IMG/VR virus record: IMGVR_UViG_3300045988_154477 | Length of the DNA stretch: 64,000 nt | From: a virus | Taxonomy: Duplodnaviria > Heunggongvirae > Uroviricota > Caudoviricetes | Reading direction: 5' to 3' (one strand) | In this document: in pieces, positions 53,135 to 56,424 of the stretch | How positions within the stretch are numbered: the first letter of the stretch is position 1 | Layout of the letters: each line of letters opens with the position of its first letter | Position numbers and translations under genes: made by a program | Notes under the pieces: model-generated | What the model was told of the DNA's origin: nothing | What the model saw: the letters and a program-made list of their open reading frames with translations, nothing else | The model's database searches: none

Positions 53135-54048
53135 CCAGAATCACTGAAGAGCGTATATCAGAGATTATTTCCCGTATCGAAATGTATGGTCACGGTGCTG
53201 GATATACGGCAGATGAAGTATTGGCACTTGCCCAAATGGCTTTGGCGGCTTGCAAAGATGATAAAAAAATGAAGCTTATCGACTTGTTAGTGAAGGAGCT
53301 GCCTAAGTGCGGCGGGTGGCCTGATGGAATGAGTTATTGTTACCTACCCAGTGTCAATTTAATGGCACCATGCGCGACTTTTGCTTTTGGCTCAGACCAC
53401 AAAAAAGACACTTTCTTTGGGCGCAATTTTTGTTGTGAGATTGAGCTTCCAATTGGTGACCTTGATAGCGATGAATACCAGTCAGTTGTCACTCGCGAAC
53501 AATACGAATCAGCTCTCATAGCGTCGCAGAAAGTCGAGTTCAATGGTGATGAACTTGAAAGTAAGACTTACAGGTTGGATTTTGGGCAATGGCTGGAACA
53601 GCAACGCGGGAAAATCGATGTGGACTGTGGTTGTGTGTCCACTGAAACATTCATGCACTGGCTGCGGGTAGCTTACGAGGCTGGCAACTATCCGGATATT
53701 CCGGATAGTTCGGTGCCAGCGCCAGGAAAGGGCGTCACCGGTGAACGTATCCGAATTAAGCCGCATGTTTATCGCGAACTGGTTAACCGCCTCCACGATA
53801 CAGCGGTCAAGTGTGCTGGCACCCAGCAATTACGAGAAAGAATTAGCCGTGTTTTGGGCGACGTTATTACGCCAGATCATCATAAACAAGCCGAGAAAAG
53901 TGACCTGGAAAGGTGTCACCTTGAGGCGGCATTAAACATTAAGCCGGGGCATACGCTTGGCATTATTGATGCACTGTTGGTTCATAAGATGGCCAGGGCT
54001 TTATTGTCGTTGGTGGACGCTGGTGATACAAGCGAGGGTGAAGTATGA
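53116..54048 (+). CDS. hypothetical protein, 310 aa
   Basis: Long ORF with normal composition. Confidence 0.45.
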   Translation: MAQKEMTRITEERISEIISRIEMYGHGAGYTADEVLALAQMALAACKDDKKMKLIDLLVKELPKCGGWPDGMSYCYLPSVNLMAPCATFAFGSDHKKDTFFGRNFCCEIELPIGDLDSDEYQSVVTREQYESALIASQKVEFNGDELESKTYRLDFGQWLEQQRGKIDVDCGCVSTETFMHWLRVAYEAGNYPDIPDSSVPAPGKGVTGERIRIKPHVYRELVNRLHDTAVKCAGTQQLRERISRVLGDVITPDHHKQAEKSDLERCHLEAALNIKPGHTLGIIDALLVHKMARALLSLVDAGDTSEGEV

Positions 54049-54407
54049 GAGTTGCAGATCACATCAAACACCTTGAAAGAATTATCGAAAACGGTGAACT
54101 CTTAAGAGATCAGATGAGACGCACGGCAGAAGCCAGGGAGGCGATAATCCGCAGTCAGGCTGGTAAATTAAAGCAATTGTCAGAGATTAACACGCTATAC
54201 AAGAACAGACGTAACCGGGCGGTGATGCGGCTTCAGAAAGCACGTAATGAAATTAAATTGGTGGAGGCAAAACTGAAAAAACAGATCCAGCGTTACGATC
54301 AGCAAGATGCTTTTTATGCCGCCATCAAGGCGGCTGCTAATGAAATAGGCATCTGGAAGTTGCTGGTGGAGAAAGCAAAGACGAAGTTAAATGCCAACGA
54401 AAGCTGA
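54045..54407 (+). CDS. coiled-coil protein, 120 aa
   Basis: Heptad-rich; last gene of rightward block. Confidence 0.4.
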   Translation: MRVADHIKHLERIIENGELLRDQMRRTAEAREAIIRSQAGKLKQLSEINTLYKNRRNRAVMRLQKARNEIKLVEAKLKKQIQRYDQQDAFYAAIKAAANEIGIWKLLVEKAKTKLNANES

Positions 54408-54482
54408 ACTACAGGTGCCCACCAGCACATACAGAAAATGATTGTTTCCACATCAAGGAGATTTTAATGTTTCACTGAAACA

Positions 54483-54620
54483 TTAAGTAAGCCAGTGCAT
54501 AATTCCATTTTTTACTGACCTTAAAAGCAAAATCAAAACGATGATGAGGATAATAGCCAGAATCTGGCTAATAATAGGCGCATCTAAAAATGCACTCAGG
54601 AACTGAAAAAAAGCGTTCAT
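54483..54620 (-). CDS. 45-aa hydrophobic peptide (type I toxin-like candidate)
   Basis: AAGGAACCACCTGA then ATG; MNAFFQFLSAFLDAPIISQILAIILIIVLILLLRSVKNGIMHWLT. Confidence 0.25.
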   Translation of the reverse strand: MNAFFQFLSAFLDAPIISQILAIILIIVLILLLRSVKNGIMHWLT

Positions 54621-55482
54621 TCAGGTGGTTCCTTGTCAAATGTAAAGGTGCACTTGCTCACGTTGACGTAGAAACCCAACCCCTATATAGTTGGATTCGG
54701 TGAATGAAAGTCGTTAACGTGAGCTTACGGCACATGTTTTCGGAAAAACATCAGGGAACGGCTAATTCCTTGATGCGGGTGGGGTCTGTAATGCAGACCC
54801 TATCTATTAACGTCATGATTGCATCTCAAATTTTCTCCTTATCTTCAATTAATCTACATTCATTTCATCTGTTAGCCACCACAATATGTAGAAAATGGCC
54901 CTCTTGCAAGTGCATAACTTTGTGGATAACTCAGGAAGGAAAAAGTGGCTTTCGCGCACCTTCGGTCAGACAAGGTGTCCGGGAAAGTCAACGCAAAGAA
55001 AAAAATTGTTAAAAATAACGTTTGTTGGAATTGTATATTTTTATCCCCTTCAATGGTTAGCATTCTATTAACATCTTTTTTTAGAGACAGAAAAACATAT
55101 CGTAACAACATATATACAGTGTTAAGAGGCGAGTATTATCCTGCGGTGGGAATTCTGGGCGCTGTTAGATTCGACTTTCTCAGCAGGATTACATCGTCAA
55201 CTTGCGACGTTGCCGTATGACTTTCGTGTGATAGGTGACAATGATGCGGCTAGTGAGTTACTTGTGAAGTTTTTCGGAAAAGGTTTTGTGGCCTCGGATC
55301 TTGATGAGCTACAGCAACATGAAGTGTCTAATTTGATTTTTAGCCATAGCCAATAAGCCTCCCTCCTCCATCAAGGCCACAATTTGTGACCTTAAACAAT
55401 TTGTTTTCTGCTTTTTCTTATTTGAGAAAATAACGTTGTTGACAGCTAATAGGCTCGTTGTTGTTATACATGCCTGTATAGA

Positions 55483-55839
55483 TTATGACCGTAAATTATT
55501 AGCGGATTTTAAGCCATATTCACCGTTGTAGAAATTACTTATGTTCCACTCATTAGGAAGTTCTTTTCTGTCCAATGTATAGTGGCGCACGATATAACGA
55601 TCTTCATCTTCTTCGATGGACAGGCGGACATAGCCAATGTGAATCACCGATACGGGCGGTGTTCGTATTGCATAGATGTCGCGGAGATATACCGGCAGCT
55701 CGACAAATGCATCAGGTGCATCTGTGATGCTCGTTTTTTCACAGTATTCATATAACGCATCGTTGATATCGTTAAGAGATTCATGATCGTATATTTCCAG
55801 GTAATTACCGCGATAGCGATGGTACTCGACTTTAGCCAT
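55483..55839 (-). CDS. hypothetical protein, 118 aa
   Basis: ORF coupled to upstream gene. Confidence 0.4.
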   Translation of the reverse strand: MAKVEYHRYRGNYLEIYDHESLNDINDALYEYCEKTSITDAPDAFVELPVYLRDIYAIRTPPVSVIHIGYVRLSIEEDEDRYIVRHYTLDRKELPNEWNISNFYNGEYGLKSANNLRS

Positions 55840-56154
55840 TCAAAATCCCCTGTTATCGTTTTGCATTTCTCTAATCCGGTTCAGAACTACTTCGTGCTGG
55901 ACTTGGATAGCGGCTTTTTCGTTTTCAAGCCGGGCAATAGACATCTCTAATTCTTTGCTGTACCAGGCGAGCCGGGCCAGGTTCATCCGGTTGTGGTCGA
56001 GAGTTGGAGACACTTCGACGCGATCCCTTTCTTCCTGCTTTAATGAGAAGAGATTCATCTCATCCCTTGAGGAAAATTCAGCAACAATTTCTTGTTGATG
56101 ATCCGGTCGCTGCGGCATCCTCGCCAGTATAAATGGCGGTTCTTTTGAAAACAT
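55840..56154 (-). CDS. hypothetical protein, 104 aa (possible pol III theta homolog)
   Basis: Position matches P1 hot; weak resemblance to HolE only. Confidence 0.3.
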   Translation of the reverse strand: MFSKEPPFILARMPQRPDHQQEIVAEFSSRDEMNLFSLKQEERDRVEVSPTLDHNRMNLARLAWYSKELEMSIARLENEKAAIQVQHEVVLNRIREMQNDNRGF

Positions 56155-56208
56155 GAATGTCGGTTCAGACCGTGTTTTTACCCAGCTTGCCTGCTGTCTT
56201 TCGGCAAG

Positions 56209-56424
56209 TTAACAGGCTTCATCATAGTTATCTGCCAAACAAAGCACGGATGGACGGTCCCACGCCCCACCATTCAGACAATAAACTACAATTTTCCCGT
56301 CAGGTTGTGTAACCCCATATGGATGGTCCCACCAGGCGTCCAGCTGAGTTTTAGAGCGTTTCTCGTTAGGAGTGCAGTCAAAATTTTTGGGCAATACAGG
56401 ATCGAGAGGAATGCGATTAGGCAT
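56209..56424 (-). CDS. small hypothetical protein, 71 aa
   Basis: Divergent from humD. Confidence 0.35.
   Translation of the reverse strand: MPNRIPLDPVLPKNFDCTPNEKRSKTQLDAWWDHPYGVTQPDGKIVVYCLNGGAWDRPSVLCLADNYDEAC

Follow-up and report, generated by a model that had tools for sequence, protein, structure and literature searches.

What, if anything, is encoded in the AT-rich kilobase at positions 54408–55482 of the virus record IMGVR_UViG_3300045988_154477 from IMG/VR? The window, by which we mean the whole stretch of 64,000 nucleotides (nt) that was analysed, represents a P7-type member of the P1 family of phage-plasmids, and the open reading frames (ORFs) neighbouring the island include Phd, Doc and HumD. 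In the initial annotation, made from the nucleotide sequence, the island had been described as a possible "moron or regulatory region" with a toxin-like peptide, a DnaA box, a promoter-like element and an ORF lacking a usual start codon. We find that the island is a mosaic of two mutually unrelated halves, namely a conserved cassette on the left and a recombination scar on the right. The DnaA box and the nrdA-like promoter in the left half were already known, and the ORF of 45 amino acids (aa) next to them belongs to a conserved cassette of peptide and RNA that is not annotated. The earlier description is therefore fair for the left half, which is self-contained, low in GC and promoter-bearing, and does not hold for the right half. 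For the island as a whole, the best explanation, to which we give about an even chance of being correct, is an antisense-gated small-membrane-peptide cassette with a layout resembling type I toxin–antitoxin (TA) loci, joined to a recombination scar.

The island is bounded by a homologue of pmgV (54045–54407, plus strand) and a homologue of P7 upf93.6 (55483–55839, minus strand). Its low GC content was confirmed: 39.4% at 54410–55480 against 47.7% for the whole window, which places it among the lowest 2.5% of segments of equal size. The 1.3 kb around the island are 99.6–99.8% identical to phage P7, and likewise to many P1-like plasmids of E. coli and Salmonella, while the match to phage P1 is limited to positions 54300–54960 (96% identity), with divergent sequence beyond. 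The region between pmgV and the humD block is one of eight variable regions of P1-like plasmids (PMC9603915). The annotation of P1 lists here plus-strand ORFs only (upfM, upfN and upfO), with the late promoter LPhot and the gene hot after them, and the annotation of P7 lists upf91.3–91.7. The papers searched make no mention of the peptide, of a local small RNA (sRNA) or of the nrdA-like promoter of P1.

A conserved cassette in the left half

The cassette occupies positions 54417–54930 and is shared with a second lineage, designated B, that is about 78% identical. The homology begins at 54417, 10 nt past the stop codon of pmgV. Searches of PLSDB, IMG/VR and metagenomes revealed two deep lineages only: lineage A, comprising the P1 and P7 types, which are 95–100% identical to each other, and lineage B. 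Two pattern scans of viral contigs recovered the same approximately 54 loci, and a single pattern scan of species-representative genomes, among which P1 is not included, gave chance matches only. The cassette is carried by 229 plasmids in PLSDB and occurs in 216 of 5426 complete E. coli genomes (about 4%), the matching places being on plasmids in 222 of 223 cases and on a chromosome in one. In P1 and lineage B, hot stands in place of the right-half scar, and in lineage B the cassette lies between a type I restriction–modification (R-M) system and hot, in both IncFIB SSU5-like and IncY P1-like plasmids. The loci of lineage B (L006, L007, L009, 1–2022) have the cassette and hot flanked on the left by hsdS and hsdM of this R-M system; the recurrence of the R-M flank in both plasmid backbones suggests a larger block moving between phage-plasmid families.

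The identity between lineages A and B along the region is as follows:

54408 to 54482, 3' flank: 64%
54483 to 54620, 45-aa ORF: 76%
54621 to 54654, leader proximal to the Shine–Dalgarno (SD) sequence of this ORF: 65%
54655 to 54700, block of the plus-strand promoter: 93% (43 of 46 positions)
54655 to 54842, core: about 90%
54891 to 54932, -35 element and DnaA boxes: 95% (40 of 42 positions), with flanks at 50–70%
54933 to 54960, further upstream: 50%

The neighbouring gene hot served as a neutral benchmark, with a proportion of synonymous differences (pS) of 0.37 and a ratio of non-synonymous to synonymous rates (dN/dS) of 0.11. Flanking non-coding DNA and the synonymous sites of hot differ by about 36–37% between the two lineages, compared to 10% for the core, where 19 differences at 189 sites were counted against a neutral rate of 0.36 (P about 3e-16). 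The non-coding core, which the initial annotation had missed, is the most constrained sequence of the region. This rate contrast already disfavours the view that the whole kilobase is drifting junk, conserved merely by recent common ancestry. Such a view would be in line with the demonstrable debris in the right half, the variability of the region among P1-like plasmids and its dispensability for lytic growth, but it does not account for substitutions that respect the hairpins described below, and we consider it improbable.

Opposed promoters, hairpins and the 45-aa reading frame

The following features were identified in the left half, from left to right:

54463 to 54485, minus strand: hairpin HT (UUAAUGUUUC-AGU-GAAACAUUAA), which overlaps and follows the stop codon of the 45-aa ORF
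54483 to 54620, minus strand: hydrophobic 45-aa ORF MNAFFQFLSAFLDAPIISQILAIILIIVLILLLRSVKNGIMHWLT, candidate small membrane peptide or toxin
54630 to 54634, minus strand: SD sequence AAGGA of this ORF, 9 nt upstream of its ATG (GAGGA at 8 nt in lineage B)
54663 to 54691, plus strand: predicted sigma-70 promoter TTGACG-N17-TATAGT ('PupfN' of the P1 record), matching 10 of 12 consensus positions
54672 to 54698, minus strand: hairpin H0 of the minus-strand leader, spanning the spacer of the plus-strand promoter
54698 to 54843, plus strand: structured RNA core with hairpins H1 (54711–54743), H2 (54750–54774) and H3 (54777–54805), then a conserved tail
54822 to 54843, plus strand: the conserved tail CAUCUCAAAUUUUCUCCUUAUC, downstream of H3
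54751 to 54843, minus strand: start of the minus-strand leader, with a strong SD sequence UAAGGAG, AUG at 54824–54822 and a mini-ORF
54881 to 54929, minus strand: nrdA-derived promoter with two DnaA boxes, -35 and -10 elements
54909 to 54904, minus strand: -35 element TTGCAA, followed by a 17-nt spacer and the -10 element TATTGT at 54886–54881
54917 to 54909, minus strand: DnaA box 2 TTATGCACT, abutting the -35 element
54929 to 54921, minus strand: DnaA box 1 TTATCCACA, a perfect consensus, read on the plus strand as TGTGGATAA
54891 to 55019: segment like the DNA upstream of nrdA (ypaB locus), 129 bp, 91–95% identical to the E. coli chromosome

The nrdA-upstream-like segment matches the chromosome in all 5426 of the 5426 complete E. 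coli genomes, upstream of nrdA. By its orientation nrdA would sit to the left on the minus strand, so that the captured promoter fires leftward, toward the 45-aa ORF; its predicted start at about 54874 leaves a leader of about 254 nt before this ORF. The segment retains the -35 element and the two upstream high-affinity DnaA boxes of the E. coli nrdAB promoter in native spacing, but the native -10 element, the NrdR boxes, the nrdA leader and the nrdA gene are missing and the downstream sequence is unrelated. The region of the NrdR boxes and the leader are absent because the homology ends about 5 nt before the E. coli -10 element. Unlike in E. coli, the -10 element has been replaced and the promoter faces the peptide ORF. 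The replacement reads TATTGT in lineage A, P1 included, and TACTGT in lineage B, compared to TATCTT in E. coli and in Cyrano, an SSU5-like phage-plasmid; T1, A2 and T6 are always kept.

The perfect DnaA box TGTGGATAA reported at 54921–54929 is present. The 9-mer by itself is unremarkable, with 4 occurrences in the window against about 2.5 expected, and it is meaningful because it lies inside the 129-bp nrdA-like segment. It is neither new nor free-standing: the old P1 record M95666 lists at this position, on the minus strand, an 'nrdA-like promoter' along with a 'dnaA box', and the P1 genome record also places the box in an nrdA-like promoter. The DnaA box, the nrdA-like promoter and the plus-strand promoter are thus all predicted in the GenBank annotation of P1 as they are here, but the P1 records give plus-strand ORFs only, with no 45-aa ORF, no RNA and no product tied to the nrdA-like promoter. 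At the parental nrdAB promoter, DnaA acts as activator or repressor, depending on its level and bound nucleotide (PMC8203912), and from this parental promoter we infer that the captured one may likewise be under the control of DnaA.

One could also propose that the boxes act simply as DNA, titrating DnaA or aiding plasmid or lytic replication through the unwinding of AT-rich DNA, given two adjacent boxes, one of them a perfect consensus, in a strongly conserved position beside AT-rich sequence. However, the boxes and the -35 element stand in native promoter geometry, with a usable -10 element at 17 nt in every lineage, and two boxes make a weak titration site. In addition, the P1 origins oriR and oriL are located elsewhere. 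We regard a role of the boxes as DNA alone as extremely improbable.

Two observations concern other readings and other carriers of nrdA-upstream DNA. The products of P7 upf91.6 (window positions 54895–55071, plus strand) and P1 upfO (L001 3095–3235) owe their homology to E. coli YpaB solely to their location on captured nrdA-upstream DNA. The N-terminus LQVHNFVDNS shared by Upf91.6 and UpfO is the sequence of the DnaA box and -35 element read in frame; their C-termini diverge, and the corresponding frame of Cyrano is truncated. In SSU5-like phage-plasmids (Cyrano OV696614, L067 2460–3010, minus strand), an nrdA-like promoter with the genuine -10 element TATCTT is found upstream of a umuD-like gene, where it would drive a predicted RNA of about 82 nt ending at a bidirectional terminator. 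Further left, the Cyrano locus contains an unannotated hydrophobic ORF of 27 aa, MVNLLFKIVPPMFAIIKAIIEYVNQRP, with an SD sequence and a strong terminator. This ORF is present in 94 PLSDB plasmids, including variants from Citrobacter, Klebsiella and Enterobacter (60–89% identity), has never been annotated, and is a candidate for a second, non-homologous small peptide at the same locus.

The predicted plus-strand promoter, with a start at about 54695–54699, faces the nrdA-like promoter at a distance of about 190 bp. Neither hexamer varies in lineages A and B, and the promoter is present in every complete copy surveyed. Another plus-strand candidate, 'P1upfM' at 54475–54503, was rejected since its -10 element is lost in lineage B. 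Folding of the core favours the plus strand, with a z-score of -4.27 versus -2.11 for the minus strand and a consensus fold of -40 versus -30 kcal/mol for the complementary strand; G-U pairs make up 7 of the 32, and the opposite strand would have A·C mismatches in their place. Thirteen differences between lineages A and B fall in the structured part, 10 of them at unpaired positions and 3 in stems (binomial P = 0.01, Fisher P = 0.007). All stem changes keep the pairing, with one compensatory U-A to C-G double change, two compatible changes of G-U to A-U or U-A, and no disruptive change. With a covariance model of the plus-strand RNA, neither the window nor Cyrano-type loci gave a second copy.

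The long ORF 54704–55012, annotated in P7 as Upf91.4, had been suspected to be non-coding, and the comparison bears this out: its ATG, specific to the type represented by the window, is absent in P1 and lineage B, its frame is broken in lineage B, and its product matches no family. Insertions or deletions (indels) of 1 nt at 54629 and 54746 in lineage B break upfM and upf91.4, respectively, and, judging from the aligned sequences, these annotated plus-strand ORFs are not conserved.

The minus-strand ORF at 54483–54620 exists as described, together with an SD sequence, but the latter, which had been called strong, is only fair, since it reads AAGGA and stands 9 nt before the ATG. The encoded peptide has a grand average of hydropathy (GRAVY) of 1.56, with 19-residue windows reaching 2.95, and a single predicted transmembrane stretch, so that it has the small size (<60 aa), hydrophobicity and membrane-spanning character of type I toxins. 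The length, start and stop of the ORF are identical in P1 and lineage B. The peptides of lineage A (MNAFFQFLSAFLDAPIISQILAIILIIVLILLLRSVKNGIMHWLT) and lineage B (MIVFFQFLSAFLNAPVLSQVLAIVFIVVLIWFFKSVINRGVRWLI) differ by conservative substitutions (I/V, L/F, R/K and D/N), and the SD sequence is kept. No indel was found within the ORF, against three events in 109 nt of flanking sequence (P about 0.02, a rough Poisson estimate). The dN/dS ratio between the lineages is 0.41, and random placement of the 33 substitutions left the frame open, with a BLOSUM score at least as good, in about 4% of trials. Altogether, the 45-aa ORF is likely, although not proven, to be coding.

The ORF is intact in nearly all of about 80 copies. 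Gene callers have never reported the peptide of lineage A, and the lineage B form appears as a 'hypothetical protein' in a few genomes. The few database entries of the peptide (P0001–P0004) have C-termini frameshifted or truncated past residues 31–37 or so, in both lineages, which fits either a relaxed constraint on the tail or occasional inactivation. A word search of 5.8 billion clusters and a phmmer search of 1.84 billion representatives for distant homologues yielded nothing beyond copies of lineages A and B with frameshifts or truncations, and a scan of metagenomes with the back-translated peptide found these two lineages only. Searches for the peptide family in Pfam, PHROGs, NCBIfam and PADLOC gave no meaningful match, the best being PHROG 1184 (E = 0.058) and ASFV_J13L (E = 0.25).

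Several structures accompany the ORF on the minus strand. Hairpin HT is preserved in lineage B, where a double change has turned a U-A pair into C-G and a G-C pair has become G-U; there it folds on the minus strand only (-5.5 kcal/mol), with no equivalent fold on the plus strand. Hairpin H0 has a folding energy of -10.4 kcal/mol on the minus strand versus -5.1 on the plus strand, and the differences between lineage A, P1 and lineage B are confined to its loop. At the start of the leader, the block of SD sequence and AUG (54843–54822) is invariant, and the mini-ORF that it opens reads AUG-CAA-UCA-UGA in lineage A and AUG-UAA in lineage B. The mini-ORF overlaps, by AUGA, an ORF of 21 codons at 54816–54751, which is open in both lineages but probably not constrained as a protein, since the changes in it are almost all non-synonymous. 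A long-range pairing of the 5' and 3' ends (CAUCAAGGA with UCCUUGAUG) and sequestration of the SD sequence in the predicted full-length minus-strand mRNA were not relied on, because they are not consistently kept in P1 or lineage B. On the plus strand, positions 54457–54478, just past pmgV, contain a perfect SD sequence AAGGAG, a 6-nt gap and the 3-codon ORF ATG-TTT-CAC-TGA; since it is not conserved in lineage B, it probably arose by chance or belongs to the 3' region of the minus strand.

These minus-strand features are relevant to the main rival explanation, according to which the core is a lysogenic promoter and structured 5' leader of hot, which encodes a homologue of the theta subunit, the 45-aa ORF and the other minus-strand features being incidental and the whole being orphaned in the P7-type window. 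The position of the cassette agrees with it: in P1 and lineage B it is always directly upstream of hot, on two plasmid backbones, with the promoter pointing at this gene and no terminator detectable past H3. Moreover, the divergence between P1 and P7 (about 4%) is too small for retention of the cassette without hot to prove selection. Yet the ORF, its SD sequence and HT lie upstream of the plus-strand promoter and have nevertheless been kept, free of indels and with structure preserved, while adjacent sequence drifted to neutral levels. The opposing nrdA-like promoter retains its -35 element, boxes and a usable -10 element in every lineage, and a leader of hot would leave the minus-strand hairpins unexplained. 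Furthermore, hot has its own mapped late promoter, LPhot, and the P7 form lacking hot is common, occurring at an identity of at least 99% in 93 of the 229 PLSDB plasmids. We therefore judge it unlikely that the cassette is merely a leader of hot.

The recombination scar in the right half

The right half, from about 54930 to 55482, is a recombination scar without evident function. It consists of the following parts:

54905 to 55139, plus strand: relic of the region upstream of an S24-peptidase (umuD/humD-like) gene, 87% identical in alignment to SSU5-like phage-plasmids such as Cyrano
55113 to 55120, plus strand: half LexA box TATACAGT, left by an 11-bp deletion
55124 to 55129, plus strand: relic SD sequence AAGAGG from the former umuD/humD-like gene
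55140 to 55356, plus strand: 3' relic of a primase/toprim gene, its last approximately 66 codons, joined in frame to the relic SD sequence and without a start codon
55373 to 55400, plus strand: terminator hairpin of the dead primase gene (AAGGCCACAATTTGTGACCTT, hairpin at 55373–55393, one stem mismatch) with a T-rich tail
55439 to 55469, plus strand: TTGACA and TTATAC with a 19-nt spacer, pointing into the 3' end of the convergent upf93.6

The first relic comprises an nrdA-like segment, an AT-rich spacer, the half LexA box, the SD sequence and the 'AT' of a lost ATG. The joint of the left cassette and the right scar falls inside the nrdA-like sequence common to both parents (54905–54960). The equivalent Cyrano locus has a LexA box TACTGTATGTGTATACAGTA, the SD sequence AAGAGG and AAGAGGCGAGTATT-ATG-GGCTTCCC, the start of an S24 peptidase (MGFP..). 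In the window the peptidase gene breaks off after the first two letters of its ATG (55138–55139), with the joint at 55139/55140, and the former ATG is now ATC. Of a LexA-regulated umuD/humD-type gene start, the complete CTGT-N8-ACAG box, the ATG and a downstream peptidase ORF are all missing.

Beyond the joint, the translated relic is 85% identical over 66 aa to residues 109–174 of a toprim protein of 174 aa (E = 3e-38) and matches PHROG 17952, 'DNA primase', at 6e-39; the DNA alignment is about 90% identical. With residues 109–174 only, it lacks the catalytic part of a full-length primase; it has no Pfam domain, and no ATG, GTG or TTG occurs before 55210. In the P7 reference (AF503408 92007–93063), the insertion sequence (IS) IS903 lies inside this relic, at about window position 55229, while the window is free of it. 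The terminator hairpin is homologous to a perfect hairpin located 3' of the toprim gene in a related locus (L005), although the terminator scan did not call the relic hairpin at 55373–55393. Homology to the region downstream of the primase ends at about 55441, by TTGACA.

The initial annotation had seen in this half an ORF at 55135–55356 with the SD sequence AAGAGG and a possible AUU start, as well as a promoter-like element TTGACA-N17-TTATAC at 55439–55467. The sequence facts about the ORF are correct, but it is a chimeric relic rather than an unusually initiated gene: an SD sequence precedes an open frame without a start codon because the SD sequence of a dead gene became joined, in frame, to another dead gene's tail. 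The promoter-like element was misread. TTGACA is at 55439–55444 and TTATAC at 55464–55469, a spacer of 17 nt would give TGTTAT as the -10 element, and the promoter scan does not call it. A sigma-70 promoter has hexamers separated by 16–18 nt and, in its -10 element, A2 and T6; the element at 55439 does not reproduce this pattern and is probably a chance match.

Consequently, we find it very improbable that the island holds several independent elements, that is, a toxin-like peptide, a free-standing DnaA site, a promoter at 55439 and an AUU-start ORF at 55135–55356. The sequence strings all exist near the places given for them, and the ATC at 55138–55140, in frame behind a genuine SD sequence, might even allow trace translation. 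Against this, the ORF represents the last 66 of 174 toprim residues, its SD sequence comes from a truncated S24-peptidase gene and IS903 lies inside it in P7; the element at 55439 has a 19-nt spacer and a poor -10 element, and the DnaA box belongs to a copied promoter. As a negative, the right half is instructive, illustrating that a strong SD sequence followed by a startless open frame can arise purely by illegitimate recombination.

To the right of the scar, an lxr-like gene (P7 upf94.2, 194 aa; window positions 55840–56424) carries an in-frame nonsense change, E72 to TAA, at 56209–56211 on the minus strand, which splits it into ORFs of 71 and 104 aa; the gene is intact in P7.

Proposed mechanism and relation to known systems

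In the mechanism that we favour for the left half, the nrdA-derived promoter would transcribe leftward through the leader of about 254 nt to the 45-aa ORF with its single transmembrane helix, while the plus-strand promoter inside this leader would make an RNA of the structured segment, about 110–150 nt long. This RNA would act as a cis-antisense regulator by pairing with the leader, including the SD sequence and AUG at 54843–54822; alternatively or additionally, collision between the face-to-face promoters could operate, and either route would keep the peptide mRNA silent. The nrdA-derived promoter would couple expression of the peptide to DnaA status, and thus to replication-initiation potential or replication stress. 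From this arrangement we infer the layout of a type I TA locus or of an antisense-gated small membrane protein; that the peptide may be toxic is suggested solely by its size and hydrophobicity.

A number of observations weigh against this mechanism. Both promoters and both RNAs are predictions, and the terminator scan identified no canonical terminator after either RNA. The constraint on the ORF at the protein level is moderate, with 12, 8 and 13 differences at the first, second and third codon positions and a random-placement P of about 0.04–0.1. No toxin family in Pfam, NCBIfam or PADLOC matches the peptide, and BLASTP of the peptide against LdrA detected no similarity at E values up to 100. 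An Rfam search with the RNA at E values up to 10 returned noise only, with no family; the shuffle control of the hairpin pair count was not significant (64 of 500 shuffles), and the covariation rests on single events because there are only two deep lineages. Sequestration of the SD sequence is predicted in every variant, but with differing partners, and is not robust. The plus-strand promoter in P1 and lineage B also points at hot and could serve it. Finally, deletion or knockdown of upfM, upfN and upfO in P1 gave no lytic-growth phenotype (PMC10695390), and this dispensability is compatible with the antisense-gated cassette, without supporting it, and equally with a leader of hot.

In its predicted architecture the cassette resembles ldr/rdl and hok/sok: a small hydrophobic single-helix ORF toward the 3' end of an mRNA whose leader is long and structured, a strong opposed promoter inside the leader, a structured antisense RNA, and a plasmid- or prophage-borne location. 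Like Sok over the start of mok, the antisense RNA of the cassette would cover the SD sequence and AUG of the leader mini-ORF. Unlike in hok/sok, no upstream frame overlaps the peptide ORF as mok does; the leader ORF stops at 54751 and leaves a gap of about 130 nt to the peptide ORF. Neither sequence comparison nor covariance models showed similarity to Hok, Ldr, Fst, TisB, Ibs or the sRNAs that go with them. The peptide does not match Hok/Gef in Pfam, and Rfam gave no match to Sok at E values up to 10; for ldr/rdl and Fst, there was likewise no match in Pfam and no match to rdlD or RNAI/RNAII in Rfam. The peptide shares with Ldr and Fst the look of 'D..AP-I', which we take to be a resemblance only.

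With tisB/istR-1 and dinQ/agrB the proposed cassette would share the wiring of a membrane-peptide promoter to a regulator of DNA status and restraint by an sRNA, but DnaA would take the place of LexA as regulator, the sRNA would lie in cis-antisense instead of being divergent, and the peptides are not homologous. Like phage morons, the cassette is a low-GC autonomous unit between blocks of phage genes, dispensable for lytic growth and variable among relatives; typical morons have an ordinary protein with a flanking promoter and terminator, whereas here there are opposed promoters, an RNA core and a peptide.

It is possible, although doubtful, that the cassette represents an unrecognised type I TA family of P1/SSU5-family phage-plasmids, in which a 45-aa toxin driven by an nrdA promoter would read DnaA status instead of the SOS response and be held in check by a cis-antisense RNA. 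If so, a growth-arrest or addiction switch triggered by replication stress would have stayed unannotated in a classic model phage.

Few phages have been studied as much as P1, and P1-like phage-plasmids often carry resistance genes. Should the cassette be expressed in the way proposed, the current annotation of this region (upfM, upfN, upfO and upf91.x) would be wrong-stranded, and the peptide and the sRNA would have to be added. It would also show clearly that a mobile element has captured a cell-cycle promoter of its host, the DnaA-controlled promoter of nrdA, for timing its own gene, and would provide a testable link between the replication status of the host and the behaviour of the prophage-plasmid.

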